This document shows, piece by piece, positions 11,308 to 53,100 of a DNA stretch of 64,000 bases. The stretch is from an uncultured Alphaproteobacteria bacterium (lineage in GTDB: Bacteria; Pseudomonadota; Alphaproteobacteria; HIMB59; GCA-002718135): assembly GCA_902541435.1 (NCBI GenBank), contig CACBQR010000001.1:58240-122239 (forward strand), in the 5' to 3' direction. The notes under the pieces were generated by a model, which made no database searches, had not been told where the DNA came from, and worked only from the letters and a program-made list of their open reading frames with translations. The position numbers and the translations under genes were made by a program. Each line of letters starts with the position of its first letter. Position 1 is the first letter of the stretch.

Positions 11308-12366
11308 TTATATTTTTTTAGCAGCAGATGTCTCTTTAATATTACTAAGCTTAGTGTATCGATCAATCATTTGAGTAGTTTTATGCCCACTTTGAGCCAT
11401 TATTTCATGAGTTGGTACACCGTTCATTCTAGCTTGAGTAATAGAACCAATTCTTAAACTGTGGCCTGAAATTTTATCACAATTATCTAAATCAGCTTCT
11501 CTTGCTCTTTTTTTAAGTATTAGGACAAAGCTTGTATCTGTAAGACTTATTTTTTGATTTTTATTATTTAGAATATATTTTTCAATATTATTAGCTCTAT
11601 TTATTTTATAGAACAGGGGGCCTTGATCTATTAAAGCTACTTCTAACCAATCTTTCAGTGCTTTTACTGGACAATAATCATTATTAGTTTTGGGAAGGTA
11701 TATCATTCTTCCTTCACCTTTTTGATCAGTCTTGGAAAAAGGTATCAATACCTGAACACCATCCTCTTCAAAATTTAAATGTTCATATTTCATACCTAAA
11801 AGCTCAGATCTTCTACAAAAACTATAAAAACCTATTAAAATAAGAGCTCTATCTCTTATGTTTCTAAAATCTTCGTTATTATTTGGAATTTTATCAATAA
11901 TTTTTTCAATATCTGCTTTTAGCAACTCTCTTGCTTGACCAGATTTATTATTTTTTTCATCTCTAACAATTGCACTAATTGTTTCAGAGATATTTGGATT
12001 TTTTCTATCAAATTGAAAACCGTTAACTCTATATTTATATGTAATAGATGCTAAGATTCTTTGTATAGTGGAAGCTTTATAGGCAGTAGAGGAGTAGGGG
12101 TTGTTATTTACATTTTCTCTACCCGGTATGTTGCTAGATCCTTTGAGTATTTTCGCCTCCGGATCTTCATGAAGCCAATCCATATAATTAGCTGTTAATG
12201 CGTAAGCACTATCTAGATCATCAACATCTAAAGGACTGCAATTGTATTTATTTTTGCAATAATCTATAAATTTTAACCAATCTCCCTGATACTTATCCTG
12301 AGTGTTTTTAGCTTTGGATTTTTCCTTTAGTTTACTTACGTTTTCATTTAGTGATATTTTAACCAT
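11308..12366 (-). CDS. Tyrosine site-specific recombinase/integrase
   Basis: Catalytic-domain motifs RDRALILIGFYSFCRRSEL (Arg) and GHSLRIGSITQARMNGVPTHEIMAQSGHKTTQMIDRYTK (H-x-x-R ... H ... Y). Confidence 0.85.
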   Translation of the reverse strand: MVKISLNENVSKLKEKSKAKNTQDKYQGDWLKFIDYCKNKYNCSPLDVDDLDSAYALTANYMDWLHEDPEAKILKGSSNIPGRENVNNNPYSSTAYKASTIQRILASITYKYRVNGFQFDRKNPNISETISAIVRDEKNNKSGQARELLKADIEKIIDKIPNNNEDFRNIRDRALILIGFYSFCRRSELLGMKYEHLNFEEDGVQVLIPFSKTDQKGEGRMIYLPKTNNDYCPVKALKDWLEVALIDQGPLFYKINRANNIEKYILNNKNQKISLTDTSFVLILKKRAREADLDNCDKISGHSLRIGSITQARMNGVPTHEIMAQSGHKTTQMIDRYTKLSNIKETSAAKKI

Positions 12367-12375
12367 AATATATAT

Positions 12376-12397
12376 TACGATAATTACAGTTATCGTA
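12376..12397. repeat. Perfect 8-bp inverted repeat TACGATAA-N6-TTATCGTA just upstream of the integrase start
   Basis: Read directly from the sequence, 10-31 nt upstream of the integrase ATG. Possible operator or recombinase-binding site. Confidence 0.3.
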
Positions 12398-12518
12398 AAT
12401 AATAGTCAATAGAAAAATAATATTTATATATATCAATAGTTTATATATATTATCTAAATATATTTATAATATTACAAACTAGATATAGATTTTCACGTGT
12501 AATAAAATACTGTATATA

Positions 12519-13253
12519 GTGTATCAAATGGAACAATTACCGCAGATTTCAGCTGATTCCCAGATCTTTATATTAACGGGTGCTGGTATAAGTAAAGAGT
12601 CTGGGATTGAAACTTTTAGAGACTCAGATGGACTTTGGAATAACCATAGGATTGAGGATGTTGCCAGTCCCGAAGGTTTCTATAGAAACCCTACTCTTGT
12701 CTATGATTTTTATAATAAACGTCGAAAAGAACTAAATTCAGGAATTAAGCCAAATAAGGCTCATATTTTACTTCATGAATTAGAAAAAACATATAAAATT
12801 CATATAGTTACACAGAATATCGATAATTTACATGAGATTGGAGGATCATCATCAATAATTCATATGCACGGTGAGCTAAATAAGGCGAGATGTATAATGA
12901 ATGATAATCATGTGTTTGAGTGGATAGAGGACCTAAATGAAACCCATAAATGCCCTAAATGCGGCTCTCAAATGAGACCTCACATTGTATGGTTTGGTGA
13001 AATACCAATGCAAATGGATGAAATCCATGATTTAGCCGAACAATCTAGTCTATTTGTTTCTATAGGCACATCAGGACAAGTCTACCCTGCTGCTGGTTTC
13101 GTTTCAATGTTTAAAGATATGGGCAAACCAACAGTTGAATTAAATCTAGAGCCATCAAGTAATCAAAATCAATTTGATTTTGCTATTCATAAACCTGCAA
13201 CAGTTGCCGTTGAAGAATTTAAACATTTACTTTTAAGTAATAAAAAAAACTAA
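12519..13253 (+). CDS. cobB: NAD-dependent protein deacylase, Sir2 family (CobB-like)
   Basis: TGAGISKESGIETFRDSDGLWN NAD-binding motif, QNIDNLHE, catalytic HG(E) and a CPKCG zinc ribbon. The listed start is GTG; an ATG lies at 12528. Confidence 0.8.
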   Translation: MYQMEQLPQISADSQIFILTGAGISKESGIETFRDSDGLWNNHRIEDVASPEGFYRNPTLVYDFYNKRRKELNSGIKPNKAHILLHELEKTYKIHIVTQNIDNLHEIGGSSSIIHMHGELNKARCIMNDNHVFEWIEDLNETHKCPKCGSQMRPHIVWFGEIPMQMDEIHDLAEQSSLFVSIGTSGQVYPAAGFVSMFKDMGKPTVELNLEPSSNQNQFDFAIHKPATVAVEEFKHLLLSNKKN

Positions 13254-13336
13254 TTTATTCACGTTATTAAATTTTTTTTAACAAAAAAATTTTTCTAGAA
13301 CTTTCTTTATAAAGAATCATTAGCATTAATGTTTTT

Positions 13337-13792
13337 ATGACAAGAAAACGTCCTGATTACACTGAAGCACGTAATTATTACATAAAAGGAGAGAGAAATG
13401 AGTACCCTACTCTTCAAGATATCGCTACAGAATTCAATTATTCTTTATCAACACTAAGAAAACAAGCAGCTAATGAAGGCTGGCTTTCAAAAAGAAAAGA
13501 AAGAATTGATCTGAAAGAAACAATAAAGATGAGAAAAGAATTTATGGGAAAAGCATCTAAGCTTACTAATGTTTCCTTCAACGCAATAAGTGCTGCAGAA
13601 TATATAATCAATAAAATTCAAGAAGAACAAAAGCAAATTGAATTAGGAATTAAAATTTTTGATGTACACATAGCTACAAAGCAAATTTGGGCTTTAAATA
13701 ATGCAATGAAACTTGTGGAAAGAGGCCAACAAACACTCGATGAGATTGAAAATGGACACATGTCTCCTATTGAAGACTTTTCTTTTTTATAA
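13337..13792 (+). CDS. HTH protein resembling phage terminase small subunit / YjcR (COG5484)-type
   Basis: N-terminal pattern RKRPDYTEARNYYIKG...TLQDIATEFNYSLSTLRKQAANEGWLSKRKE matches the HTH plus 'W..KR' signature of that family. This is recalled from memory, not searched. Confidence 0.45.
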   Translation: MTRKRPDYTEARNYYIKGERNEYPTLQDIATEFNYSLSTLRKQAANEGWLSKRKERIDLKETIKMRKEFMGKASKLTNVSFNAISAAEYIINKIQEEQKQIELGIKIFDVHIATKQIWALNNAMKLVERGQQTLDEIENGHMSPIEDFSFL

Positions 13793-14398
13793 TTTAAAAT
13801 TCTTATGAATAAATGATCTATCTTGAGGATATAAATAAGTTTCTTCAGTGAAAAATACATCTAATGGTCCTGATACGATATTGTAAATATACTCATCATT
13901 TTTTTTAAGAGTTTTCAAATGTTTGACACGTGACTTATCTGTATTCCAAAAATGGTGTAATATTTTTCCTCTTTCAAAATATAAAACTAAATGTTCCTTA
14001 AAATTATCATCAAAAATACCTTGATTTAAAGCATATCCATGAGGAATTCCGTTTTTAAAAGAACAATAAAAAGTATTTTTTACCTCACTGGTTCTATACT
14101 CCATCATATGCATTAAAGTTGTTCCATTTCTTACACCATTTTTATATTCTGCACTTTCATATTCTCTTAAACCTAAATTTAAAAAATATATTTTTGTATC
14201 TAAATGTCTGCTACAATTGATATTTTCTAAATCGTAATAAATTCCAGATTTATATTCAAAGTTAAATTTTTTATTACCTCTACCGTGTGGAGTTTTATTA
14301 TCTTTCTTGGTATCGCCAGTGTATGTAAAATCTAAAAACTGCTTATCTTTGTCATCAAGAATTCTCTTAATTACAATTTTTTCGTCATCTTTAAACAT
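13787..14398 (-). CDS. MORN-variant repeat protein (YwqK-like), paralog 1
   Basis: G-x-x-HG repeat motifs (TPHGRGNKKF, YKNGVRNGT, FKNGIPHGYA). Roughly 45% identical by eye to the 15679..16287 product, e.g. EHLVLYFERGKILHHFWNTDKSR vs EHLVLYFLNGEIVHHFWCNDKSR. Confidence 0.55.
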   Translation of the reverse strand: MFKDDEKIVIKRILDDKDKQFLDFTYTGDTKKDNKTPHGRGNKKFNFEYKSGIYYDLENINCSRHLDTKIYFLNLGLREYESAEYKNGVRNGTTLMHMMEYRTSEVKNTFYCSFKNGIPHGYALNQGIFDDNFKEHLVLYFERGKILHHFWNTDKSRVKHLKTLKKNDEYIYNIVSGPLDVFFTEETYLYPQDRSFIHKNFKL

Positions 14399-15678: not shown

Positions 15679-16287
15679 TTATTTAAGTTTAAATTTTTTG
15701 TAGTTTGTCCATGATCTATCGTGAGGAAAAATATTATCCTCATCAGTAAACCAAACCTCTAAATCAGTGCTAGTAATATTATAAATCCTGCTATCATGTT
15801 TTTTTAATTTTTTTAAATGTCTATCTCGTGATTTATCATTACACCAAAAATGATGCACTATTTCACCATTTAAAAAATATAAAACCAAGTGCTCTCTAAA
15901 ATTGGTATCATAAATACCTTGTTGTAATGCATACCCATTAATTACTCCATCTGCAAAAGTACAATGAAATAGTGTATTTTCTTCATGATGATCATCTGGT
16001 CTAAAAGCTAATGTTGCTTCTCCATGCCTTAAGCCATTTTTATAATTTGCAGTTTCATCAACTCTTATGCCTAGCCCATATAAGAATACTTGTGTGTTGA
16101 AATCATTAGTGCTTTTCAACATCTCCCAATCATATGTTATTTTTTCGTTATAGATGAATTTCTTTTTACCTTTACCGTGTGGTAAGCCAACTTTGTCTAT
16201 GTCGCCATCATATTTAAAACCCAATATATCTTTATTTTTTTTCTTAAGGATTTTAAAAACTGCATTTCTTTCTGGATCAACAACCAT
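15679..16287 (-). CDS. MORN-variant repeat protein (YwqK-like), paralog 2
   Basis: LPHGKGKKKF, YKNGLRHGEA and FADGVINGYA motifs. Paralogous to the 13787..14398 product. Confidence 0.55.
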   Translation of the reverse strand: MVVDPERNAVFKILKKKNKDILGFKYDGDIDKVGLPHGKGKKKFIYNEKITYDWEMLKSTNDFNTQVFLYGLGIRVDETANYKNGLRHGEATLAFRPDDHHEENTLFHCTFADGVINGYALQQGIYDTNFREHLVLYFLNGEIVHHFWCNDKSRDRHLKKLKKHDSRIYNITSTDLEVWFTDEDNIFPHDRSWTNYKKFKLK

Positions 16288-16424: not shown

Positions 16425-16607
16425 TCAAAGTTTTTTAAGAGCATAGTATAAAGGTCCTGCACTTAATACTAAACCTATAACAATTTTTACTACTGCGTGT
16501 CCATCAAGTCCAGTATAATAAGGGATTGTAAAAAATAGTTCCATTGCGAGATAAAGAACCCAAAATGAACCAAATAAAACAAGTAATATTTTTAATAATT
16601 TCTTCAT
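16425..16607 (-). CDS. Small two-TM membrane protein (60 aa)
   Basis: Two hydrophobic helices. It is preceded by a GAAAGGAAAAATT-ATG leader that is conserved with the repeat-peptide gene. Confidence 0.55.
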   Translation of the reverse strand: MKKLLKILLVLFGSFWVLYLAMELFFTIPYYTGLDGHAVVKIVIGLVLSAGPLYYALKKL

Positions 16608-16683
16608 AATTTTTCCTTTCGTAAAGTTTATAAATATTAAAACGTTCCTGGTTTTATTTTGTTTGAAATTAATTAAAAAAATG
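16608..16683 (-). promoter_or_regulatory. Conserved 76-nt leader/promoter element, copy 1
   Basis: About 94% identical (4 mismatches, 1 indel) to 22813..22889, whereas the downstream coding sequences are unrelated. The identity includes the SD region and a GGAAC motif. Confidence 0.6.
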
Positions 16684-16726
16684 TAAGTTTTTGAAAAAGC
16701 TTTCCCTCTTTACTAGGAATATTCAA

Positions 16727-19717
16727 TTAATTTACACCAACAATTGTATAGGGTGACCAGTAAAAAGGATGAGAATAATTGTTATCTTGTAATAGTTGAA
16801 TCTGTGACATTTTAAGTTTTTCAAAAAAGTTTTTAGCATTATTTTTAAAAAATTCTGTAGTGATCAATTCAGCCGAGTTAGTTTCCACTGCCCATTTAGT
16901 TGTGAGCATATTTTTTGATCCAGAGTAAAAAAATGATCTAGTTAAACCTGAATAATAATCACCACTTAGATCAGGAGATGCTGTATTACATGCTGATAAT
17001 ATTAATAAATTTGAATTAAATTTTTGATTTAAAATTTCTGAAGTTGTTAAATATCCATCATTAGAATTGTCTAAATTTTGAGAAAGAACAATTGCAGGCT
17101 CATTTATATTATCAACTTCATTTGCTTTTAATGCATGTGTAGCAAACATCATATATTCACTATCCATGTTCGTTGTATTTATCAGAGTTTCATTAGCTTG
17201 ATTTCCTAATAACAGAACTGTGTCATTATTTTCAAAATTTTCACTAATAAATTTAACTTCACTTTCAGTGTTAGGTAATTGAGTAAAAGTATTATCAAAA
17301 TTTGGATTCCCTACTCCAATAAATTTCTTAGCGTACTCAGTATTTTTAAGATTTTTTAATAAATAAAAAGATTCAATTGAGGGAAGATAACTGAAACCAT
17401 ATTTCTTTATAAGGAAATCTTGTTCAGAAAAATTATCTCCATTTATTTCATTATCTAATAAGCTGGCAAAAGGTATAGAAGAAATAATATCGTCAGAAAT
17501 AACAGTAATTTTATCATCAAATTGAATACTACTTTCAAAAGGCTCAATCAGAATTTTATATAAATCATAGCCAACATTAAATCGGGATATATTACTTCTA
17601 GGTTCTTCTAATAATAATCTTAAATTTTTTATTTTTAATAAAATATCATTTTTTATATTTTTTATTATTCTAAAATCCGTATTCTTTTGATCGACAAAAA
17701 GTATAATTAAATCTTCATTGTAAAAAGTATATAAAAAAATATTTTCATTTACATCAATTGCTTCTTGTATTTTCTCTAATGAATAATTGGTATTATTTAA
17801 TAAAAAATTTAATTCCTGATAATTGTCTTCTAACAGATCATTTATAGCATTTAGTTCATATGAATACTCTTCAATTTTAGACATAATATCTTTTTCTTGT
17901 TCTCTATCGATTTCATCAGCTAACTGTATTTTAGTTAAATCATTTCTTAATCCAGAAATTTGATTTCTTAATGTTTCTTTTTTTTGTAAATTATCAATGA
18001 TTTCTTCATTTTGTATATTACTTTTTACAATCATTTCTCTAATAAAATTAGAAAAATCACTACTATCTAAATATGAAATTAAATTAAATGCTGAGTTAGT
18101 ATTTACATTATTATCATTAATAATTTTTAAATAATTATAAAACCCATCCTTAAAAAATGGGTTTAAAATAACTAAATCATTTAGATTATTCTCCAATACT
18201 ACATTTAATGTTTCTTCATAAATTCTAACAGCTTCATTAATGCGATTATTAAGAAAAAAACATTTAGCTAATAAATTTTTTGATTCTAAAAGATTGATGT
18301 TATCATTTGTTAAATATTTTCTTTTAATCTCAATTGATTCCTCCATTTTTTCAATGCAAGCCTCTTTATTTTTGCTTAGAAAATATTCTTCTGAAAAGAT
18401 TTTTAAAGCTTCAGCATAGTCAATTTCTGAAGTTTTTTTTGAACCATCAAGATATTCTGAAATATATTTATCAATATCTTCATTCAAATATTGTAAGATT
18501 TTTATTTTTATTGGAACATTTCTGAAATGTAATCTTTCGAGCCCAAAAAAAGCATCATAAACATTTTTTTCTGCTAAATTAAAATATGAAATAGATTTTT
18601 GAAAGTCTCCTTTTTCAAAATAATATTTCGATATTTCAAATTGAGCAAAAGAATAATCAGCTAAAAAAACATCTTCAGGATTATTTTTATAATAATTATC
18701 TATTTTAAAAAAAACCTTATACGCTTCATTTTTTTTATTTGCATTTAAAAGTATTCTAGCTTTTTGTGAAAATAATTGCATTAAATAAGAATCTTCTCTT
18801 GCACCAGAATAATTATGAATTCTTAAAGCCTCATCTATCGACTCTATTGCTAAATTATAATTACCAGCACTCTCATATGCTTCAGCCAAAATTCCATAGT
18901 CGTAAGCTAAATTTTGTACATTCTTACCTTCTCTTATTGTTAGAAGGTTGATCACTTCATTTGCATAATCTATTGCTTTTAAATAATCATTGGCGGCATT
19001 GGCATATATCGAAGCCCAATAATAAACAAACTCATTAGGCCGAGTATTATTTATTGACTGATTATTAATATAATCAATTGTATCAATGATTTTTTCAAGA
19101 TCCTGATAATAATTTCCTGAAGAATTTAAATCAATTAATTCAAGCTGAGCATATACATTGCCGCTATCTGCTGATAATTTTAAATGTTTTTGTGCTTTAT
19201 CAAAATCATTTTCAAATACTTCTCCGTATTTATAAAAATAACCTAACTTATAATTTGCACAGCCAATATTGTTATTGCTACCAATAGTTACATATTTTTT
19301 AACTTTTTCAAAATCAACTATATCTTGATCATAATTGTCACCTATTAATCCAAAAAAATATAAATCTGCAGCATCACAAGTGGCCTCATAGTATCCCTTA
19401 TTAATAGATTTTAATAAATATTCCTCTTTGAATTTGATATCTACTTTTTCATTATAGATAACTGCTAAAATATAATATGCTTCCGCTAAATCATTTTGAT
19501 CTATTAGTTTTTTACAATCATTTTCTAAAAAATCTAAATCATAAATTGATACATCAAAACCATCATGCTGATGAGCATTTTTAATTATATTAACTGCATC
19601 CTCGCATTTGAGTTGATTAGCTCTGATATTTTTACTCGATAATAAATTAAGAGTAATTGGTACAAGTAAAATGAAAATAAATGTTTTAATAAAAAATTTT
19701 TTATATTGAACACTCAT
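16727..19717 (-). CDS. Exported Sel1/TPR-repeat protein with C-terminal CHAT (caspase-fold) protease domain
   Basis: Signal-peptide-like N-terminus (FIFILLVPITLNLLSSKNIRA-NQ) and Sel1/TPR helical repeats. The C-terminal CHAT His/Cys dyad contexts are MFATHA and LLILSACNTA. Confidence 0.8.
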   Translation of the reverse strand: MSVQYKKFFIKTFIFILLVPITLNLLSSKNIRANQLKCEDAVNIIKNAHQHDGFDVSIYDLDFLENDCKKLIDQNDLAEAYYILAVIYNEKVDIKFKEEYLLKSINKGYYEATCDAADLYFFGLIGDNYDQDIVDFEKVKKYVTIGSNNNIGCANYKLGYFYKYGEVFENDFDKAQKHLKLSADSGNVYAQLELIDLNSSGNYYQDLEKIIDTIDYINNQSINNTRPNEFVYYWASIYANAANDYLKAIDYANEVINLLTIREGKNVQNLAYDYGILAEAYESAGNYNLAIESIDEALRIHNYSGAREDSYLMQLFSQKARILLNANKKNEAYKVFFKIDNYYKNNPEDVFLADYSFAQFEISKYYFEKGDFQKSISYFNLAEKNVYDAFFGLERLHFRNVPIKIKILQYLNEDIDKYISEYLDGSKKTSEIDYAEALKIFSEEYFLSKNKEACIEKMEESIEIKRKYLTNDNINLLESKNLLAKCFFLNNRINEAVRIYEETLNVVLENNLNDLVILNPFFKDGFYNYLKIINDNNVNTNSAFNLISYLDSSDFSNFIREMIVKSNIQNEEIIDNLQKKETLRNQISGLRNDLTKIQLADEIDREQEKDIMSKIEEYSYELNAINDLLEDNYQELNFLLNNTNYSLEKIQEAIDVNENIFLYTFYNEDLIILFVDQKNTDFRIIKNIKNDILLKIKNLRLLLEEPRSNISRFNVGYDLYKILIEPFESSIQFDDKITVISDDIISSIPFASLLDNEINGDNFSEQDFLIKKYGFSYLPSIESFYLLKNLKNTEYAKKFIGVGNPNFDNTFTQLPNTESEVKFISENFENNDTVLLLGNQANETLINTTNMDSEYMMFATHALKANEVDNINEPAIVLSQNLDNSNDGYLTTSEILNQKFNSNLLILSACNTASPDLSGDYYSGLTRSFFYSGSKNMLTTKWAVETNSAELITTEFFKNNAKNFFEKLKMSQIQLLQDNNYSHPFYWSPYTIVGVN

Positions 19718-19840
19718 AATTAACGTTATTTATACAATGATTTTTTTTTTCATAACTACATTTTTCTCTATTTTTTTTGATTTTTACATAAGTTGTCATT
19801 CAATTAAATATAAAACGACTGAAAAGGTAAATTGTTTTAA

Positions 19841-21421
19841 TTAATGTGGTACAAAAATGAAATCACCTCCATCATGACCTGCTTTAAGTAAAACAGACAT
19901 TTCCGGAACTTGATCAGCATTATTGATGACGTATTTTCTAATATTAGGAAAAAGATCATCACTTAGCACAATGCTATTATTTTCTTTTAGAGTATTTATT
20001 AACGCGTTAGCAAAAACTGAATGATTATTTTCACCGGAGTCTACAGCTGGTTCATCACCGCCAGCAGATGTGATAACCACACGGGTTTTTTTTGATACTA
20101 CTTTGGTAATATCTTTAGTTAGATTTAGTTTCTGTTTACCTCTCATTAAGCTTCCAGAAAAACAGCTATCTGAAATTAAGAGGACATGTTTTGCTTTTGT
20201 AGCTTTAATATTATCAAGAATGTAGGAATTATTGATCCATTTGGATCTTTTGGTTGTGTCTGCATCTATTGGAAGCCAGTACCCTCGCTCTTCATCATTA
20301 TCAAGTTCGCCGTGTCCAGCGTAATAAATTAATAAATTATCAAAGGGTTGCATCTGACTTCTTATTTCAAAGATTGCATCTTTCATTTCATCATGTTTTT
20401 GATCAACTAAAAGAGTCACATTAAAATTATAGTTGTTTTCTAATATCTCAGCAACTTTAGTAGCATCATTAACAGCAGTATTTAGCTTTGGCAGATATTC
20501 GTAATTGTTATTACCAATTACAAGGGCATAATAATTACCAAAATTAATTTCATCTCTAAATGATTCATTCTTATTGCCTTGGACAACAACTGTTTCATTA
20601 TTTAATAAATTTTCATTATATGCGCCTAATTCTTTTAATCGTCCTATCGCATAATCACTACCAAGTTTAGCTGCTTCAGTATAAAATTTAATTGCTTCAT
20701 CTAAATCTTCATCGACACCAAGACCAAATTCGTAATGCCATGCAAGATTACCTAGGGCAAATACTTCATTAGACTCAGCTGCTTTTAATGTCCATTCTAG
20801 ACCTTTCTCGTAATCCATTTCTGTCCCTCTTCCTCCAGCATACATCCATCCAAGGTTTGCTTGTGCAATGACATTATTTAATTCTGCGCCTACTGAATAC
20901 CATTTAAAAGCTTCCTCATAATTAGACTCTGTTCCGATGCCATACATGTTATGATATGCAAATTCAGTTACAGCATAATCATAAAAATTATCATCTTCAC
21001 CTAGTTCCACAGCTATTTTAACCATTTCAAAAGATAATTTTAAATGCTCTGGTAAATTAAATATATCCTCTTCCTGTCTAACAATCTCAGATATTCTTAA
21101 ATACATATAAATAGTATTATGCAAATTATACATTGAATTAGCGTATTCAACTGAAGCAATAATATCTTGATTAGTTCCTATTCCTTTTAATAAAAATTCA
21201 GATGTATTTTCAATTCCTAAATAATCACCTTTATCTGCTAATGCTTTGTAGCACAAAAAAGCTTCAGAAAAATTTTCATCATTATAAAAAGCTACTGCTT
21301 TGTCGTTTAAGAAACCAATTGATTTATCTTCTGTACATATTTGATTAGCTATAAGTTGATTTGAAAATATTAATAAGAATAAAAAAAATAGAATTTTATA
21401 TATTTTTGCACTCACCCACAT
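19841..21421 (-). CDS. Exported Sel1-repeat protein with C-terminal caspase (peptidase C14) domain
   Basis: Signal peptide (LFFLFLLIFSNQLIA-NQ) and Sel1 repeats (AQANLGWMYAGGRGTEMDYEKGLEWTLKAA...). The C14 dyad contexts are LIYYAGHG and LLISDSCFSG. Confidence 0.85.
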   Translation of the reverse strand: MWVSAKIYKILFFLFLLIFSNQLIANQICTEDKSIGFLNDKAVAFYNDENFSEAFLCYKALADKGDYLGIENTSEFLLKGIGTNQDIIASVEYANSMYNLHNTIYMYLRISEIVRQEEDIFNLPEHLKLSFEMVKIAVELGEDDNFYDYAVTEFAYHNMYGIGTESNYEEAFKWYSVGAELNNVIAQANLGWMYAGGRGTEMDYEKGLEWTLKAAESNEVFALGNLAWHYEFGLGVDEDLDEAIKFYTEAAKLGSDYAIGRLKELGAYNENLLNNETVVVQGNKNESFRDEINFGNYYALVIGNNNYEYLPKLNTAVNDATKVAEILENNYNFNVTLLVDQKHDEMKDAIFEIRSQMQPFDNLLIYYAGHGELDNDEERGYWLPIDADTTKRSKWINNSYILDNIKATKAKHVLLISDSCFSGSLMRGKQKLNLTKDITKVVSKKTRVVITSAGGDEPAVDSGENNHSVFANALINTLKENNSIVLSDDLFPNIRKYVINNADQVPEMSVLLKAGHDGGDFIFVPH

Positions 21422-22496
21422 CTTGTTTCTTATTATCGTTTAAATCGATACATTGTTTTTCTGTAACACCATCTTCATTATTATCATAATTATATTGTAA
21501 AACCCATTTACCATTCTTTTTTATCCAGGCTATAATAAGTTCATCTTTTAAATTTTTATTTTCATCATAAAAATATTCATCATAGTAACCATCTTTATTA
21601 TAATCTACATCTTCCCTCTCAAAATAATTATCGCAATCCATATCCCATTTACGAAGTGTATAATTTTCTTTTTCTTCTATTTTTCCTTCATTCGCATACT
21701 TACAATTATTTGAATTAGTTATTTTTGGTATAACTGGTGGATTATTTAAAAATGCTACTACTTCATCTGCCGAAACAGCATAATTAAGACCAGGTGAGTC
21801 AGTTCTTTTGAATGAATTAATTCCAATAATTTTTCCATCATTTGATATTAAAGGGCCTCCAGAATTACCAGGATTTATTGGTGTTTGAGTTTGAACAATA
21901 TTAGCTGTATGTTCATACCATTTATAATTATCTCTTAATTGACTTACAAACCCTCTAGTGTACGTACAGTTTTCTCCCTGTGGATTTCCTATCGCATGCA
22001 CATCATCACCAATTAAAACATTATTCATATCAGTTTCAATCGAATAGGGTTCAACATTATAATTTTTTGATTTAATTTTATTTCTTTCAAGCTTAATCAA
22101 TGCAAGATCTTTTTTAATTATATAACTCACTACTTCAGCTCTAAAAATTGTATCACTTGCGTTTGGATCATATTTTTCACTAGTACAAAAACCTACCATA
22201 ATTAAAGGGCTAACCCCTTCATCATTTGAGATCACATGATAATTAGTTATTATTAATCCATCATTACCAATAAGAGCACCTGATCCACTGCTTGAAGGTG
22301 TTAATATTATTGCTGTTTTTGGGGCATTAGTCTTATATATATTAGATCCAATACTGCGAGTTGTAATATCACTTTCTAAATTACTTTTAATTTCAGATAA
22401 CTCGGTGTGTAATTTTAATTCTAAATAACTAGGTATTTCACCTTGGGCAAAAACACTACTGGATAAAAATATTATAAAAAGTATTAACCTAAACAT
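21396..22496 (-). CDS. Exported trypsin-like serine protease (S1 family) with Asp-rich C-terminal domain
   Basis: Signal peptide (ILFIIFLSSSVFA-QG) and catalytic triad contexts TNYHV, DLALIKL and GNSGGPL. The C-terminus has two DxNxDG calcium-loop-like motifs (DYNKDG, DNNEDG). Overlaps the caspase gene by 26 nt. Confidence 0.85.
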   Translation of the reverse strand: MFRLILFIIFLSSSVFAQGEIPSYLELKLHTELSEIKSNLESDITTRSIGSNIYKTNAPKTAIILTPSSSGSGALIGNDGLIITNYHVISNDEGVSPLIMVGFCTSEKYDPNASDTIFRAEVVSYIIKKDLALIKLERNKIKSKNYNVEPYSIETDMNNVLIGDDVHAIGNPQGENCTYTRGFVSQLRDNYKWYEHTANIVQTQTPINPGNSGGPLISNDGKIIGINSFKRTDSPGLNYAVSADEVVAFLNNPPVIPKITNSNNCKYANEGKIEEKENYTLRKWDMDCDNYFEREDVDYNKDGYYDEYFYDENKNLKDELIIAWIKKNGKWVLQYNYDNNEDGVTEKQCIDLNDNKKQDVGECKNI

Positions 22497-22534
22497 TCTA
22501 ATAATTTAAAATAAATTAAAGTTAAAATAAATAG

Positions 22535-22563
22535 AAAAAGCCACTTTAAAAGTGGCTTTTTTT
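22535..22563 (-). terminator. Intrinsic (bidirectional-looking) terminator after the repeat-peptide gene
   Basis: AAAAAGCCAC-TTTAAAA-GTGGCTTTTTTT: a GC core stem flanked by A and T tracts, 19 nt downstream of the stop at 22582. Confidence 0.6.
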
Positions 22564-22581
22564 GTAAAATTTAATAGAAAA

Positions 22582-22812
22582 TTAATTAAGGTGGAAATCA
22601 TAACCTCCAAAGATGTTTGGTTGTGACCAACCATTAACGTCACCGTGGTAGTTATAACCACCAAAAATATTTGGTTGTGACCAGCCATTTACATCACCGT
22701 GGTAATTATAACCGCCAAAGATGTTTGGTTGTGACCAAGTGTAAGCATTAGCTGAAGATCCAGCAGCTAGAAGTGCCATAGTTAAAGTTATAGTTTTAAT
22801 TAAGTTTTTCAT
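22582..22812 (-). CDS. Exported tandem-repeat peptide (76 aa): signal peptide plus 3 x WSQPNIFGGY(N/D)(Y/F)H... repeats
   Basis: The likely start is the ATG at 22812, preceded by GAAAGGAAAATT; the listed ORF start at 22845 lacks an SD. Signal peptide MKNLIKTITLTMALLAAGSSANA, followed by two identical 18-aa units and one 15-aa variant. Confidence 0.7.
   Translation of the reverse strand: MKNLIKTITLTMALLAAGSSANAYTWSQPNIFGGYNYHGDVNGWSQPNIFGGYNYHGDVNGWSQPNIFGGYDFHLN
22585..22737 (-). repeat. Tandem 54-bp coding repeat (2 full units plus 1 truncated unit)
   Basis: The units encode identical peptides but differ at synonymous sites, e.g. CCA AAC ATC vs CCA AAT ATT for P-N-I. Confidence 0.85.
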
Positions 22813-22889
22813 AATTTTCCTTTCGTAAAGTTTATAAATATTCAAACGCTCCTGTTTTTATTTTGTTTGAGATTAATTAAAAAAAAATG
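22813..22889 (-). promoter_or_regulatory. Conserved 76-nt leader/promoter element, copy 2
   Basis: Near-identical to 16608..16683. It starts right after the upstream terminator T-tract. Confidence 0.6.
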
Positions 22890-22914
22890 CACGGTAAGGA
22901 GGAAAACCGTGCAT
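22879..22914 (-). terminator. Intrinsic terminator downstream of the sigma/anti-sigma operon
   Basis: On the minus strand: ATGCACGG-TTTTCCTCCTTA-CCGTGCAT followed by a T9 run. Confidence 0.65.
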
Positions 22915-22991
22915 TAACATAAGGAGTGAACCATAGCTTTGAGAACGATTAGCTATGATACTTAGTAAAACGTGTAAGGTAAAAAAATGTT

Positions 22992-23765
22992 TTAATTTTT
23001 TGGAAATAGATAAATAAAATTATAATCACTAATAATTTTGTAGTCACCAGTAATATCAATTGGTTCGCTTCCAATCTGTATTTCAATATGATGGAGATCC
23101 CATTTGTTTGAATCTGTGGAGCCACAATAAATATAATAATTATCACTGGTATTTTCTGTTTTATTAGAGATTTTTATTTGTTTTCTATCTAATTCTCGGG
23201 GACACTCTAACTCTTTATTTGAATCTGAACTTCTGGTTTGAGTTAAAGGTACTGAAACAGCAGAATAATTGTTTCTTTCTAGTTTTAATTCAACAGATTG
23301 AACTGTATTTCCTTCCATAAATAAATTTGGATATTCATCAACTAACACTTCTGAAACTTGTAAATACTGATCATTACTCATCATTTTACCCGTTTCTATG
23401 ATTTGTTGATTACCTATAAAAAATATTCCAACCGCAACAGCAAATAACACAGCTTTTGATTGAATAGGTATTACAAGAATAGGTTCAAAAATCTTTGAAA
23501 TAAAATTTTGATTTTTTTCTTTAGTATTTACAGATGTATCAATCTTACTCTGCAAGTCGTCAAATTTTTGACTAAACTTAGAAATTGAATCATCAATTTG
23601 GCTTGTATTAAAATTTTGATCAATGGAATTATCTAAATTTTTAAATTCTGATAATTTTTTTTGAGCATCTTGGTTATCATTAAGATATTGCTCAAATTCT
23701 AATCTTTCTTTTTCATTTAAAAGACCATCAATATAGTCAAAATATGTTGAGTCGCTTATTTTCAT
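22992..23765 (-). CDS. Putative membrane-spanning anti-sigma factor
   Basis: 4-nt overlap with the upstream ECF sigma gene. It has an N-terminal anti-sigma-like helix pattern (YIDGLLNEKERLEFEQYLNDNQDAQKKL), a single TM (AVLFAVAVGIFFIG) and an extracytoplasmic C-terminal domain. Confidence 0.6.
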   Translation of the reverse strand: MKISDSTYFDYIDGLLNEKERLEFEQYLNDNQDAQKKLSEFKNLDNSIDQNFNTSQIDDSISKFSQKFDDLQSKIDTSVNTKEKNQNFISKIFEPILVIPIQSKAVLFAVAVGIFFIGNQQIIETGKMMSNDQYLQVSEVLVDEYPNLFMEGNTVQSVELKLERNNYSAVSVPLTQTRSSDSNKELECPRELDRKQIKISNKTENTSDNYYIYCGSTDSNKWDLHHIEIQIGSEPIDITGDYKIISDYNFIYLFPKN

Positions 23766-24340
23766 AGTTTTATGTTATGTTTTTGACAAATATCATACAT
23801 CTTTAAACGTATAGAAGTCATTTTTGTTCTAATTGTATTAGGATTAATGTTTAATATATCCCCTATTTCTCTAAATTTCTTATTTTTTAAGTAATATAAA
23901 CTTACGATTTCAAAATCTTCCTCAGGCAATTCTTTTTGAAGAATAGCTGTGAGATTAGTATATGAGCCTTCATCTTGACTATTTTCTAATGCTTCATCTG
24001 CTCTTGGTCTATTATCTACTTCAAGAGAGAAATCATCTGTTGTTTGAGTTTTTCGTCGTATTTCTTTTCTTTGGTAATCTATAATAATATTTTTTATAGA
24101 TGTTTTAAAGTACCCCTCTAAAGTACCTTCGCTTAGAATTTTTTTTAAACTTTCAACGTCATTTTCAAATCTATTAAAAAATTTAACTAACATTTCACTA
24201 ACTATATCTTTTGCAATATCTTGAAGATTTTTTGTTTCTGATAATTGAAATTTCACTCTTTTGTACGTAAACCAAATAAGCTCATCTTTAATTTTTTCAA
24301 ATTCCTTACCTACATCTAGATGAAATTTATTAGTATTCAT
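23762..24340 (-). CDS. ECF-type sigma-70 family RNA polymerase sigma factor
   Basis: About 190 aa, with a region-2-like segment and a region-4 HTH (FREIGDILNINPNTIRTKMTSIRLKM). Confidence 0.8.
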   Translation of the reverse strand: MNTNKFHLDVGKEFEKIKDELIWFTYKRVKFQLSETKNLQDIAKDIVSEMLVKFFNRFENDVESLKKILSEGTLEGYFKTSIKNIIIDYQRKEIRRKTQTTDDFSLEVDNRPRADEALENSQDEGSYTNLTAILQKELPEEDFEIVSLYYLKNKKFREIGDILNINPNTIRTKMTSIRLKMYDICQKHNIKL

Positions 24341-24418
24341 AAATTAGGAAATAAATATCAGAAAATATTCAAACAATAAAACATTCTAAGCGTCTTATAG
24401 GCAAAGAAAGGATTTATT

Positions 24419-24694
24419 ATGTTTGTAATTTTTGGAACAACAAGTAGAAAAATTGAAGAAGAAAAAGGTTATTTTGTATGCCCTCAATGTCAGGTTTTAA
24501 GACCTTATGTTTTAGCGAGTATGCAAACTTGGTTTACATTATTTTTTATCCCCCTTTTTCCCGTAGGAGAAAAAAATAATCGACATGTAGAATGCAAAGA
24601 ATGCTCAACAACTTTTTATCCAAGAGTGCTTGATTTCAATCGATATACGGTTGATGGACAAATTCTAGGAGAAGAAAGCCAAGTTACAACATGA
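24419..24694 (+). CDS. Small zinc-ribbon protein with hydrophobic segment
   Basis: CPQC ... CKEC cysteine pairs and a WFTLFFIPLFPV hydrophobic stretch. Confidence 0.55.
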   Translation: MFVIFGTTSRKIEEEKGYFVCPQCQVLRPYVLASMQTWFTLFFIPLFPVGEKNNRHVECKECSTTFYPRVLDFNRYTVDGQILGEESQVTT

Positions 24695-24754: not shown

Positions 24755-27700
24755 ATGAAATGTCCCAAGTGTGGAAGTTCAATGGTTTTAAAAACTGCTG
24801 AATATGGGCCATGGAAAGGTAATGAATTTTATGGATGTTCAAAATATCCTAAATGCAAAGGCTTAGTTAATGTTAGCGATAAAAAGATAAATAATGAAAG
24901 TAGAAAAACAAAAGATAAAATTGAAGAAGTTATGACAATTGCTAAAGGCTATGAAGATCCAATACCCTATTCTGAAGCAAAAGAATATAGTGAGGAAGAG
25001 CAAGATCTTACTAAAAAGTCATTAGAGACTATAAGAGAAAAACTATTAGATGTTTCAGGAAGAAATCCACTTATTTCATTTAGACATTCAGAGAAAAAAA
25101 GAGATCAGGTAAGGTTTATTGATGAGGTTTTGGATATTCTTCATGAAAAACTTAATGAAGGAAAAAGTTTAAATATTATTTCGTTGCCTGAACCAGAAGG
25201 TGAGCCCGAAGATGAAAATGATGCAAGATTTCAATTAGAGCTAAACATTTCTAAGGACGCAGATGAAAAGTTCATTGAAGAAATGAAAAAATTACCGGAA
25301 GATGATGATGGATTATCAAAAAGAGCACTTAAAATTCTTCGAGATTTAAAAGATAGAGTCAGAGAAAAATTAGGTATGCCTCCAAGATTAGCAAGGGAAA
25401 TTCTTTCAAGAAAAGAATATGCGATAAGATCTGATTTAATACCTAATTATGAAATGCATGTTGTGAACGATGATAATGAAGATACTGAAAGATGGAATGA
25501 TACAAATTTACAAACACTTCTTTTTAGTGACGAATTAGATAGAAATTTAAAATCTGTTTGGAATAAATATAAGCAAGGATACGAAGAAAAAGGAATTAAT
25601 ACACTTCATTTAATATTAGGTTTTCTTGAATGGTATGAAAGTGATTACTCAGATAAAAAAATTGTTTCACCATTACTAATTCAACCTGTTGATATTGAAA
25701 GAGAGAAAACATTTAAAGGTCATAAATATAAGATTAAGACAACAGGTGACCAAGAGGAAATTAATCTAAATTTAACAAAAAGATTAAGTGATGATTTTGG
25801 TATTTTGCTTCCTGAAATAGAAGAAGATGAAACTCCACAAAGTTATTTAAATAGAGTTCAAGAAAAAATTCAATCTAAATCAAATTGGCAAGTTAAAAAT
25901 TATCTTACATTAGGCCATCTAGATTATGCAAATATTTTAATGTATCAAGATTTAGATTCATCAAAGTGGCCAAATGAAGAAGATTTATTGGGTAGTGAAA
26001 TAATTAATGACGTTCTTTTTGGTAATGAAAATATGTCAGATAGTTATCAAGATGACTATGAAATTGATGATGACAACATTGAAAAAATAGCGCCATATCT
26101 TGTTTTGGATGCTGACTCTTCACAACACAGCGCAGTTATAGATGTTTTACAGAATAAAAACTTAGCCTTAAAAGGTCCTCCTGGCACAGGAAAATCTCAG
26201 ACAATAACTAATATTGTTGGTGCTGCTTTAGCACAAGGTAAAAAAATTCTATTTGTGTCAGCAAAATCAGCAGCATTAGATGTTGTTTATAGTAGATTAC
26301 AAAATATTGGATTAGGTGAGTTTTGTTTAAAATTACATGGTGTAAATGCAAAGAAGAAAGAATTAATTGAATCATTAAAAAAAAGATTAGAAAAAGAAGA
26401 AAGTCATTTAAAACCTTCAATTAAAGAAAATGCAGATCAATTAAAAAAATATAAAAAACAATTAAATACATATGTAAATGATCTTAATTCTACGTTTGGT
26501 AAAATTGGAAAAACTATTCAAGAAATTTTTTGGTCTTCAATTAAATATGATCAGGAATGTGATGAATTAAATATTTCACAAGATTTAAAAAATATTAATT
26601 TCACAAACTGTAAAGATTTAACAAGTGTTCAAGTAGATGATGCATGCAATAAATTAGATAATCTAAAAGAAATCATACAAAGTTTTCACAAAAAATACTC
26701 CAGAATAGAGGATCATCCTTTTTATGGAGTGCAAAAATTTAGCTTAAATAAGTTTGATTTAGATGATCTAGAAGATAATCTTAAATCAGTTAGTAATTAT
26801 ATAAAAATCATTATTGAAAAAATAAACAAGTTTAGTGAAATTAATAACTTTAAAACTGACTTAAACGATTTTAATTTAGAAAACATAAAAATTTTTAGAA
26901 GAAGTTTAGATCTCAGTGTCCCAGATAACTTATCTGATAGATTATTACATTTTGCTAAAGAAGAAAAAATAAACCAATTACATGAAGATACAATACAACA
27001 TTTCAAGAAATCAGTTGAGCTGAAAGAAAATATTGAACATAAATATTTTGATACAAAAATTATCCATGAGGAAATCGAAAATTTATCTAAATTAATTGCA
27101 CAACTTTATAATGTAATAATCTTTTATGATGGAAAGTTAAACAGTACACAATTATCAGACATTAAGCAGCAGATAAAAAATTATGATGAGAAATATAATT
27201 ACTCTATTGAAACTTTAATTAGTTTTATTCAAAATTTATCTTCTTGTTTTGATATTAAGGATAACTACTCAAAAGAGAATATTACTAAATTTATTAGTTT
27301 AATAATTTTTTTAAATCAATTATCTCAAGACGATCTTAGTTTTAATTATGAAAATTTAGTGTCACAGGATAACTTTGATTATTTAAATAAGTTATTTATA
27401 CAAATAGAAAATACAGAAAAAAACAACAAAGAAATAATAACAAAATATAAAATTGAAGAATACGAAAACGTATCAGAATTAAGAGATTTACGACATATCT
27501 TTAATCAAGCAGGTTTTTTCGCTTTTTTAAATAGTAAATATAAAGAAGCAAAAAATAAATTTAATAATTTACATAAAGATTCTCAAAATAGAAAATTGTC
27601 TAATCAACATATGGTCAATGAGATTAAAAAGATTGAAGCATACATTGATGAAAAGAATAGAATCAATAAAGACACAAAAATAAATGAAATACTCTCATTA

Positions 27701-51393: not shown

Positions 51394-53100
51394 TTAATAC
51401 ATGAAATAACGTTGAGCTAAAGGTAGTATTTTAGCAGGCTCACAGGTAATTAATTCTCCATCTGCCTTAACTTCATAAGTTTCTGGATTAACTTCTATAT
51501 TTGGACAATAATCATTTAATACCATATCTTTTTTAGAAATTTTTCTAATATTTTTAACTGGCAATAAAGATTTGCTAATTCCAGAATTTTTGAATGAATT
51601 TTTATCTAAAGACGCTTTACTTACAAATGTTGCAGTAGATTTTTCTAATGATTTTCCAAAAGAAGAAAACATTGGTCGCGAATACACTGGTTGTGGTGTT
51701 GGAATAGAAGCATTAGGATCACCCATTTGCGAACAAGAAATACTTCCACCTTGCAAAACCATTTCAGGTTTAACACCAAAAAAAGCAGTATCCCAAATGA
51801 CAATATCTGCGCGTTTATTCTTTTCGATACTGCCAATATGATCGGAAATACCATGAGCAATGGCAGGATTAATTGTATATTTTGCAATATAACGTTTAAC
51901 ACGTAAATTATCATTATCACCCTGCTCTTCCTTTAATTGTCCACGTTGTACTTTCATTTTATGTGCTGTTTGCCATGTTCTTATAATAACTTCACCAACA
52001 CGACCCATTGCTTGACTATCAGATGCAATAATTGAAAATGCTCCCATATCATGGAGTATATCTTCTGCGGCAATTGTTTCTTTTCGAATTCTACTTTCAG
52101 CAAATGCAACATCTTCTGGTATTGATTTATCAAGGTGATGACAAACCATTAACATGTCTAAGTGCTCTTCAACTGTATTAACAGTATAAGGTCTTGTGGG
52201 GTTTGTTGATGAAGGAATAACATATTCTTCACCACAAACTTTTATAATATCAGGCGCATGACCTCCTCCTGCTCCCTCTGTGTGAAAAGCGTGAATAGTT
52301 CTTCCATTAATCGCCTTAATCGTGCTTTCTACAAATCCACTTTCATTCAATGTATCAGTGTGAATCATAACTTGAATGTCATGTTCATCAGCTACATTTA
52401 AACAATTATCGATAGCTGCTGGAGTTGTGCCCCAATCTTCATGTAATTTAAGTGAACTTGCACCAGAAATTACTTGTTCTTCAAGAGCTTTAGGTAATGA
52501 ACTGTTTCCTTTTCCTGCAAAAGCTAAGTTCATAGAAAAAGCATCAGCTGATTGTATCATTTTCTCTATATGCCATGGTCCAGGTGTAACTGTAGTTGCC
52601 AAAGTACCGTGTGCAGGACCAGTTCCACCTCCCAACATAGTTGTAATACCAGAATGAAGTGCATCATCTATTTGTTGAGGACAAATAAAATGTATATGAC
52701 TATCAAATCCACCAGCTGTTATAATTTTGCCTTCACCAGCAATTATTTCTGTTCCAGGTCCAATAATAATATTTACATTGGGTTGAGTATCTGGATTACC
52801 TGCTTTTCCAATTTCATAAATTAATCCATCCTTAAGACCAATATCAGCTTTATAAATTCCATTTACATCAACAATTAAAGCGTTTGTTATAACTGTATCA
52901 ACAGCGCCGTCTTTGCGAGATACTTGAGATTGCCCCATTCCATCTCGAATAACTTTTCCTCCACCAAATTTTACTTCTTCACCATATGTTGTTAAATCTT
53001 TTTCCACTTCAATAAAAAGTTCAGTGTCAGCAAGTCTAACTTTATCACCAGTTGTTGGTCCATACATATCAGCATAAGCTTCTCTTTTAATTTTTTTCAT
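51394..53100 (-). CDS. ureC: Urease alpha subunit
   Basis: 568 aa with [19 protein letters not shown] and DSHIHF active-site motifs. Confidence 0.97.

Follow-up and report, generated by a model that had tools for sequence, protein, structure and literature searches.

The closest described relatives of the gene cluster reported here are circuits that link proteases to sigma factors. DdvA, the partner of the sigma factor DdvS, is a transmembrane (TM) anti-sigma factor that carries a periplasmic TPR-CHAT region, which has been proposed to act as a site-1 protease (PMC11506125). Haliangium ochraceum has a type III-B CRISPR system (SAVED-CHAT/PCaspase below) that encodes a CHAT→caspase cascade together with PCc-sigma and the inhibitor PCi (bioRxiv 10.1101/2023.06.23.546230). 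In Craspase, the TPR-CHAT protein Csx29 acts on a sigma-regulating complex (PMC10028731). Here we describe a cluster in a 64,000-nt stretch of DNA (‘the window’, GC content ∼ 27%) from an uncultured alphaproteobacterium (assembly GCA_902541435.1, 172-kb contig CACBQR010000001.1, positions 58,240 to 122,239). It encodes a sigma factor of the extracytoplasmic function (ECF) type, a putative anti-sigma factor, S1, caspase and CHAT proteases that are predicted to be exported, a secreted repeat peptide, small membrane proteins and a candidate small RNA (Table 1). Our preferred reading, to which we give a probability of roughly 45%, is that the cluster forms a self-contained module for extracytoplasmic signalling and response, located in a variable island of the defence type that some Pelagibacteraceae carry. 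An earlier inspection of the sequence (the original prediction) had known of no described system of this composition. As it stands this view is not supported, since DdvS/DdvA, SAVED-CHAT/PCaspase and Craspase already carry the themes of the cluster, which arranges them in a new, split and exported form. Related clusters occur in metagenomic loci (L008, L012 and others) and follow two layouts, type A, to which the window belongs, and type B.

DdvS/DdvA shares with the window an ECF sigma factor with a single-pass anti-sigma factor (a putative one here), a TPR-CHAT region whose intact His-Cys dyad lies in the periplasm (a predicted location here), a defence-island setting and a proposed logic in which CHAT acts as site-1 protease and RseP follows. 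The two differ in architecture. In the window the TPR-CHAT region is a separate protein, predicted to be secreted (there are two in type B), that is not fused to the anti-sigma factor, and the 257-aa anti-sigma candidate lacks the CHCC zinc site. The predicted regulon is the protease/peptide/small RNA cluster itself, not CBASS or CRISPR; a caspase and an S1 protease are present in addition, and the host is a streamlined alphaproteobacterium as opposed to a member of the Myxococcota.

In SAVED-CHAT/PCaspase, too, the genes for a CHAT protein and a C14 caspase are accompanied by those for a sigma factor and a small protein, and this system provides a precedent for a CHAT protease that activates a caspase, which then cleaves many substrates. 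CHAT and caspase genes are also adjacent in L008 and L007. The Haliangium proteins, however, are cytoplasmic, triggered by cA3 via SAVED and encoded beside cmr genes, whereas the window proteases and peptide have export-signal-like N-termini and are accompanied by a membrane anti-sigma candidate and an S1 protease. Our CHAT protein has no SAVED domain (Pfam shows Sel1, TPR and CHAT only), and Pfam and PADLOC scans of the flanking open reading frames (ORFs) checked gave no cas or cyclase domain.

Craspase (Cas7-11, Csx29, Csx30, Csx31, RpoE) contains the best structural match of the CHAT protein and also couples a TPR-CHAT protease to the release of an ECF-type sigma factor. Unlike Craspase, the window cluster has no Cas7-11 or crRNA; its protease is predicted to be exported and is not RNA-guided, and a membrane anti-sigma candidate stands in place of Csx30/Csx31. 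Apart from the Hhe helicase (see below) there is no gRAMP-sized ORF, and no repeat array was found between 13.5 and 25 kb.

The SigmaE/RseA/DegS (Escherichia coli) and SigmaW/RsiW/PrsW (Bacillus subtilis) systems resemble the cluster in having an ECF sigma factor, a single-pass anti-sigma factor (a putative one here), an envelope HtrA-like S1 protease and a sigma-dependent small RNA (a candidate here; MicA and RybB in the SigmaE system). In the related loci L027 and L007 a PrsW-family protease gene lies near the cluster genes, a further likeness to SigmaW/RsiW/PrsW. Those systems are core, whereas the window cluster is accessory. In contrast to DegS/DegP, the S1 protease has no PDZ domain, scores far below the family cutoffs and lies behind a predicted sigma-dependent promoter instead of a constitutive one. 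Judged by its genes and domains, the cluster belongs to none of DdvS/DdvA, Craspase, SAVED-CHAT/PCaspase and DegS/DegP, and resembles a split, exported combination. No description of this arrangement was found in the literature joining CHAT domain, ECF and anti-sigma.

Promoter motif, gene layout and candidate small RNA

Two leaders of the cluster, those of the peptide gene and of the gene for a 60-aa protein (TM60), share the sequence TCAAAC-N16-CGTTT, which occurs twice in the window against 0.01 expected sites. The shorter form AAAC-N16-CGTTT is found exactly four times in the 64 kb (0.38 sites expected; 0 of 100 shuffles reach four). Each of these sites is on the minus strand and lies between genes of the cluster. 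Relaxing it to CGTY adds one site, on the plus strand directly upstream of the Zn_ribbon_15 gene. All five sites are intergenic within the cluster and face its genes. Both boxes are conserved in the window, L008, L012, L030, L026 and L027, whereas the 16-nt spacer varies. An AAC −35 box combined with a CGT −10 box is the usual signature of ECF promoters. Since all five sites are confined to the cluster, it looks like the regulon of its own sigma factor, and we infer that this sigma factor binds AAAC-N16-CGTY. The motif statistics together with conserved synteny exclude a chance co-location of the cluster genes. The proposal that exported proteases form a functional unit with a dedicated ECF sigma/anti-sigma pair is supported by a conserved module and by a motif confined to the cluster.

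The S1 and caspase genes have no promoter of their own and lie downstream of the second hairpin terminator, which the original prediction had placed after the peptide gene and which is present there (22561–22535). Their expression would therefore depend on read-through. In type B the motif stands at the S1, Sel1, peptide, TM60 and small RNA genes and is absent from the CHAT genes, which lie on the opposite strand. It precedes the CHAT gene in type A and the Sel1 gene in type B.

The hairpin behind the anti-sigma gene had been read as the terminator of that gene. The hairpin exists, but it closes a separate short unit with its own promoter: a stretch of ∼ 85 nt that starts at motif 22968–22992 and ends at this hairpin 3′ of the anti-sigma gene. 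We regard the unit as a candidate sigma-dependent small RNA. Its predicted elements are a hairpin at the 5′ end, an unpaired ACUCCU motif and a terminator hairpin whose loop contains CCUCC. Its fold is far more stable than that of shuffled sequences (z = −6.2). Hairpin 1 shows compensatory changes at three pairs across six loci, and the ACUCCU stretch and the CCUCC-containing terminator loop are conserved across loci. A covariance model built for the RNA matches the orthologous sites alone. Reading the region as a small ORF was rejected, as the ORFs span merely 6–23 codons and are not conserved.

The CU-rich motifs of the RNA are anti-Shine-Dalgarno-like. An RNA-duplex scan against the ORF starts of the window gave no cluster-internal target; the scan mostly picked genes with a strong AGGAGG and is uninformative on real targets. 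LhrC is an envelope-stress small RNA, and its Rfam model (RF00616), the only one to match the RNA, reaches 23.3 bits in a full-length match over 22879–22975 (E = 0.16) against a gathering score of 110. The envelope-stress RNAs of the LhrC family in Listeria share with the window RNA a short length and CU-rich motifs that lie in a loop and in a stretch predicted to be unpaired. The score is, however, far below threshold and the phylum unrelated, so that the likeness is an analogy at most and not family membership.

Table 1. Features of the cluster (positions in the 64-kb window)
Feature	Position	Strand	Basis or occurrence
Zn_ribbon_15 small protein, 91 aa, hydrophobic hairpin	24419..24694	+	Pfam 5.6e-8; divergent from sigma gene
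Motif AAAC-N16-CGTC, Zn-ribbon gene	24371..24394	+	also same place in L012, L030
ECF (group IV) sigma factor, 192 aa	23762..24340	-	TIGR02937, Sigma70_r4_2
Putative single-pass anti-sigma factor, 257 aa	22992..23765	-	position, topology, conservation
Motif AAAC-N16-CGTTT, small RNA	22968..22992	-	kept in L008, L012, L026, L027, L030
Candidate small RNA, ∼ 85 nt	22880..22966	-	fold, covariation
Motif, peptide-S1-caspase operon	22844..22868	-	kept, with variable spacer, in L008, L012, L030, L026
Secreted repeat peptide (predicted), 76 aa	22582..22812	-	signal peptide and three PNxFGG-type 18-aa repeats
Hairpin terminator/attenuator between peptide and S1 genes	22535..22561	-	kept in L008, L011, L012
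Exported (predicted) HtrA-like S1 serine protease without PDZ; C-terminal domain with DxNxDG loops	21396..22496	-	Trypsin_2
Exported (predicted) Sel1-repeat and C14 caspase (metacaspase-like) protein	19841..21421	-	Peptidase_C14, Sel1
Motif, CHAT gene	19813..19837	-	also in L010, L011, L019
Exported (predicted) Sel1/TPR-CHAT protease, 996 aa	16727..19717	-	CHAT, TPR_12, Sel1
Motif, 60-aa gene	16640..16664	-	identical in L012, L018, L019
TM60, 60-aa protein, two TM segments	16425..16607	-	topology, conservation

The inventory of the original prediction was accurate. Its seven ORFs, all on the minus strand, lie at the coordinates given, and the domains, catalytic residues, overlaps, repeats, both hairpins and the duplicated leader are each present. 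Coordinates confirm the overlaps of 4 nt (sigma/anti-sigma) and 26 nt (S1/caspase); the latter is also kept in L008. The prediction noticed neither the promoter logic and the candidate small RNA between the anti-sigma and peptide genes nor the divergent Zn-ribbon gene, and it did not mention the defence-island setting. The Zn-ribbon gene lies outside the region it had delimited, so that the cluster extends further than had been thought; this gene also adjoins the sigma gene in L012, L027 and L030.

Proteases, sigma factor and putative anti-sigma factor

The CHAT protein matches the Pfam families CHAT (1e-40), TPR_12 and Sel1. Its H861 (ATHA) and C910 (LSACNT), the dyad that had been proposed, occupy columns that do not vary among 33 diverse CHAT proteins. 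A model made with AlphaFold from a 33-sequence alignment has a mean predicted local distance difference test score (pLDDT) of 75, with ∼ 90 in the CHAT domain. A Foldseek search of the Protein Data Bank (PDB) with this model returned Csx29 at the top (7y8t_B, 8eey_B, 1.2e-12), then separase, then DdvA (8rot_A, 6e-11). The model has the TPR-CHAT fold of Csx29, separase and DdvA. A fold search had to be used to arrive at Csx29 and DdvA: phmmer against PDB sequences found only TPR/Sel1 proteins. Csx29, separase and DdvA are all regulatory proteases with narrow substrate ranges. The protein itself is rare: two close relatives are 98% and 85% identical, after which identity drops to 29%.

The caspase protein combines Sel1 repeats with a Peptidase_C14 domain (PF00656, 4e-27, 95.9 bits versus a cutoff of 21.4). 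Its predicted catalytic residues, H370 (YAGHG) and C420 (DSCFSG), are invariant columns among 18 homologues. MALT1 and Yca1 are the nearest solved relatives. An exact-sequence look-up of the protein gave no match; many of the caspase matches are named Candidatus Pelagibacter, and the cluster of a neighbouring protein has a member annotated as an M81 family metallopeptidase from a Pelagibacteraceae bacterium.

The S1 protease belongs to Trypsin_2 (8e-25). Its translation shows the motifs TNYHV, DLALIKL and GNSGGP as well as a pair of DxNxDG loops, as had been stated. Only the protease domain resembles HtrA/DegP (TIGR02037, 101.7 bits versus a cutoff of 416.2). No PDZ domain was found in Pfam/NCBIfam scans, and the C-terminal 114 aa gave no family match.

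By a crude heuristic, the peptide and the S1, caspase and CHAT proteins begin with signal-peptide-like segments, as do their orthologues in three other loci, which upholds the earlier reading of these N-termini. An ‘A|NQ-x-C-x-ED’ mature N-terminus, said to be shared by the caspase and CHAT proteins, holds up less well: NQ occurs in both, but the Cys register differs (NQICTED versus NQLKCED), and NQ is missing in L008 and in the type-B loci. The idea that the N-terminal Cys marks a lipoprotein was rejected, as no lipobox precedes it.

The sigma factor consists of sigma2 and sigma4 regions only, as is the case for ECF (group IV) proteins. It matches TIGR02937 over residues 15–181 (65.1 bits versus a cutoff of 42.9) and Sigma70_r4_2 (32 bits versus 25.7); no specific ECF subgroup model reaches its cutoff. 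The 257-aa protein that follows is a putative anti-sigma factor, judged by its position, topology and conservation, and it accompanies the sigma factor in all loci. It has an N-terminal helical domain, a single TM segment at ∼ 100–120 and a beta-rich domain of ∼ 135 aa. This C-terminal domain is predicted to be periplasmic, which fits two Cys residues that are conserved in it in the alignment. The best family signal is a sub-threshold, in-register match to zf-HC2 (E = 0.12) without the zinc ligands; the alignment shows no Cys/His ligands within the first 60 residues.

Distribution of the module and its island setting

The gene neighbourhood is conserved. The module recurs in diverged marine metagenomic loci at 24–63% protein identity, and a scan of metagenome contigs gave at least two loci. 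Among 5.8 billion proteins, the anti-sigma family forms only five clusters (90% identity). Scans of viral contigs for the anti-sigma candidate and TM60 were negative, which led us to reject a phage origin. PHROGs gave no match for the small proteins.

Type A is represented by the window, L008 and the fragments L010, L011 and L019. It has the order anti-sigma, peptide, S1, Sel1-caspase, CHAT, TM60, and the window proteins are 61–85% identical to those of L008. Type B (L012, L027, L030) has the order Zn-ribbon (divergent), sigma, anti-sigma, peptide, S1 and a Sel1-only protein that lacks the caspase domain; the opposite strand carries two CHAT genes, and in L012 TM60 comes next. Identities between L012 and the window are 63% (sigma), 45% (anti-sigma), 45% (peptide), 39% (S1), 24% (CHAT) and 93% (TM60). 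L007 has a PDZ-CHAT gene immediately upstream of one for a Sel1-caspase. When the fragments L035 and L001 are joined, the peptide gene appears to be followed by that of a 68-aa protein and then by S1, with three caspase genes close by, and L001 may represent a third form of the system (type C). L001, a marine contig (1–12214), encodes an S1 protease with many DxDxDG loops, two Sel1-caspases (849 and 516 aa) and a 627-aa caspase with multiple TM segments; it also has genes for HNH, helicase and metallophosphatase proteins, and AAAC-N16-CGTC occurs at 1281 and 4429.

Genes for a PrsW-family membrane protease and a homologue of pentameric ligand-gated ion channels adjoin the type-B cluster in L027 (226–2622). 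The same pair is found in L007 (4933–8189), beside the PDZ-CHAT and Sel1-caspase genes. In Bacillus, PrsW acts on anti-sigmaW as its site-1 protease. Neither a PrsW nor a ligand-gated ion-channel homologue is encoded in the window.

Both types are found at the chromosomal site of the window cluster, and their shared flank contains genes for AhpC, MlrC-like, integrase-family and CobB-like SIR2 proteins. Variable, defence-like DNA borders the module on either side. In the window the cluster is adjoined by Hhe (24755–30166, plus strand, 1803 aa; PADLOC Hhe 5e-230, also PDC-S37), a protein with a Zn-ribbon, DUF4011, an AAA_11/12 helicase and an MTES_1575/DUF559 nuclease, which is a separate single-gene system. 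The flank of L018 encodes PDDEXK, NUDIX and PLD-helicase proteins, that of L030 HNH, DUF2779 and a methyltransferase (restriction-modification-like). For the cluster itself PADLOC gives generic protease-domain matches only, and none for the sigma, anti-sigma and CHAT proteins.

Several other features of the region were recorded. The integrase-family protein (352 aa), the CobB-like SIR2 protein and a 151-aa protein (window 11308–13792) form a conserved edge to the variable region in all loci; the last of these faintly resembles a terminase small subunit or a helix-turn-helix protein. Two paralogues of ∼ 200 aa with weak MORN-repeat similarity (13787–14398 and 15679–16287, both minus strand; DNA 72% identical over 194 nt) bracket genes for 331-aa and 84-aa proteins, and other cargo occupies that position in L012 and L018. 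Elsewhere in the window, the Rfam 5′ ureB sRNA model scores 93.6 bits at 52668–52947 (plus strand), antisense to the urease alpha-subunit gene (51394–53100, minus strand). The model may match conserved urease coding sequence instead of a real small RNA.

Proposed mechanism and competing explanations

We propose that at rest the ECF sigma factor would be held at the membrane by its co-translated, single-pass anti-sigma factor. An envelope signal would lead to cleavage of the anti-sigma factor and set the sigma factor free. By analogy with DdvA, the TPR-CHAT protein may be the signal-activated site-1 protease that clips the periplasmic domain of the anti-sigma factor, either directly or via the caspase or the S1 protease. 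The freed sigma factor would then transcribe from the AAAC-N16-CGTY promoters. Its output would include the small RNA and a highly expressed secreted peptide, with attenuated read-through into the S1 and Sel1-caspase genes, and further the TPR-CHAT protein (type A) or the Sel1 protein (type B), TM60 and the Zn-ribbon membrane protein. The induced caspase and S1 protease, perhaps activated by CHAT, may serve as effectors that act on many envelope or foreign proteins, as the SAVED-CHAT→PCaspase precedent suggests. The most likely trigger would be an envelope insult, e.g. attack by phage or competitors, which we favour because of the defence-island setting. The type-B CHAT genes lack the motif, and this fits CHAT as a pre-existing sensor with the rest of the cluster as output. 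So arranged, the cluster would be a periplasmic counterpart, in split form, of DdvS/DdvA and of CHAT→caspase circuits. We are much more confident that the cluster is the regulon of its own sigma factor than about the assignment of the protease cuts.

Several observations weigh against such a signalling module. In type A the CHAT gene is itself preceded by the motif or, in L008, coupled to the caspase gene, so that CHAT could be a pure sensor only with basal expression. No motif precedes the sigma gene, which is unusual for ECF sigma factors. The anti-sigma candidate has no significant family match in Pfam/NCBIfam scans, and its AlphaFold model (pLDDT 50) was used for secondary structure alone; at this score the model does not suffice for a fold search. 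The export signals come only from a heuristic based on n/h/c-regions and the (−3,−1) positions, and the comparisons draw on about four diverged metagenomic loci. Alignment scans of the GTDB species representatives with the anti-sigma and sigma proteins gave no orthologue among the matches listed, which included only two distant Bacteroidota sigma factors; the cluster is likely absent from these genomes. It matches no defined system in PADLOC-DB 2.0, and the regulon holds no recognised defence effector.

A more specific proposal, which we consider possible but unlikely, is that the cluster is an extracytoplasmic immune or alarm cascade of the caspase type. Constitutive periplasmic TPR-CHAT proteins would sense phage or foreign protein in the envelope, cut the anti-sigma factor and activate the sigma-induced pro-caspase and S1 protease. 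The sigma factor would deploy the peptide, the membrane proteins and the anti-Shine-Dalgarno-like small RNA, which together would remodel or shut down the cell surface.

The repeat peptide invites a different explanation. A repeat scan of the peptide gene found three 54-nt tandem repeats, in agreement with the three 18-aa repeats that had been noted. The mature repeat unit is [WS]S[QY]PN[IF][FLM]GGY[DN]Y, with three copies in type A and two in type B. It is possible in principle that the three proteases process this peptide and that the sigma factor merely switches production on. The peptide would be either a multi-core precursor from which cutting releases 18-aa units or a subunit, polymerising or amyloid-like, that has to be trimmed. 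The order of the genes is that usual for a structural gene followed by processing genes: the peptide gene heads the operon and carries the strongest expression signals, and an attenuating terminator separates it from the protease genes. Its adjacency to S1 is kept in types A and B (and in type C as judged from the joined L035/L001 fragments only), and the repeats are rich in G, N and Y, like known self-assembling peptides. We nevertheless hold this explanation to be quite unlikely. The repeat junctions (NG|W, SG|W, SG|S) and the C-termini (HLN, YIN, LWDY) are not conserved as cleavage sites would be, and the mature peptide contains no Lys or Arg, the usual specificity of metacaspases. No modification or export genes are present.

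A further point against processing comes from the wider peptide family. An exhaustive phmmer search found relatives with PNxFGG repeats in 190 clusters at 50% identity (E ≤ 1e-3). Its members (P0311–P0460, e.g. P0318, P0319, P0324) have two to more than ten repeats of ∼ 16–20 aa. Most of those retrieved start with a signal-peptide-like segment, and some have a C-terminal domain of ∼ 280 aa (P0329, P0422, P0448). Neither the peptide nor these relatives match a Pfam or NCBIfam family, the motif has no match in the literature, and a tblastn search of plasmids with a PNxFGG protein was negative. The PNxFGG-repeat proteins look like an undescribed family, mostly secreted by prediction. In the one neighbourhood from another lineage that was examined (L031), neither a sigma factor nor a protease gene lies nearby. 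As PNxFGG proteins occur elsewhere without such neighbours, the idea that the peptide is a dedicated substrate or precursor appears somewhat weakened.

We also find it rather improbable that the cluster is a sigmaE-type regulon for envelope stress and quality control with no role in conflict, in which the proteases would clear damaged proteins and the small RNA would shut off outer-membrane protein synthesis. The S1 protease domain is HtrA/DegP-like, and all products are predicted to be extracytoplasmic. MicA and RybB are sigmaE-dependent small RNAs, and the candidate sigma-dependent, CU-rich RNA parallels them, in addition to its weak resemblance to LhrC. Against this explanation stand the very narrow and patchy distribution (five anti-sigma clusters), the location in a hypervariable island beside defence genes, and the presence of a caspase and a TPR-CHAT protein, which are specific regulatory proteases and not bulk enzymes.

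TM60 differs from the rest of the cluster in its conservation. It is 93% identical between the window and L012 (10001–10183) and its leader is identical, whereas the other genes range from 24 to 63%; this suggests either recombination at the island boundary or very strong constraint. The TM60 cluster at 90% identity has 54 members, and wherever the upstream neighbour is visible TM60 adjoins a CHAT gene or a long, cut ORF. The near-identical leaders of the peptide and TM60 genes (∼ 94% in the original prediction) were measured at 91–93% identity over 60–76 nt with one indel, and at 85% over 101 nt. That the peptide is a Sec-secreted, bacteriocin-like molecule with TM60 as its co-regulated immunity protein and the proteases as accessories is very improbable: the leaders, similar up to and including the ribosome-binding region, do suggest matched expression, and TM60 has two TM segments like the small two-TM proteins that typically confer immunity, but TM60 is 93% identical where the peptides are 45% identical and hence does not co-vary with them, L030 has the peptide but no called or ≥ 50-aa TM60-like ORF in the region examined, the leader similarity is much lower in type B, and the three proteases and the small RNA would be left unexplained.

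Read as a self-contained signalling and response module, the cluster would carry the recently discovered circuits that lead from a protease to a sigma factor (DdvA, Craspase, CalpL, SAVED-CHAT/PCaspase) into the periplasm and into a split form with several proteases. Its predicted five-promoter regulon is a compact, testable output set and contains two elements that appear undescribed, the PNxFGG-repeat secreted proteins and a small RNA supported by covariation. If the more specific proposal of an immune cascade were true, the cluster would be the first periplasmic CHAT→caspase cascade and would provide SAR11 with an inducible, sigma-based defence. SAR11 is the most abundant bacterial lineage of the ocean and is known for its near lack of transcriptional regulation. 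For strain HTCC1062, only sigma70 and sigma32 have been reported (PMC13198564). An ECF sigma factor that is carried on an island together with its anti-sigma factor, promoters and small RNA may offer such cells a route by which to acquire an inducible response.

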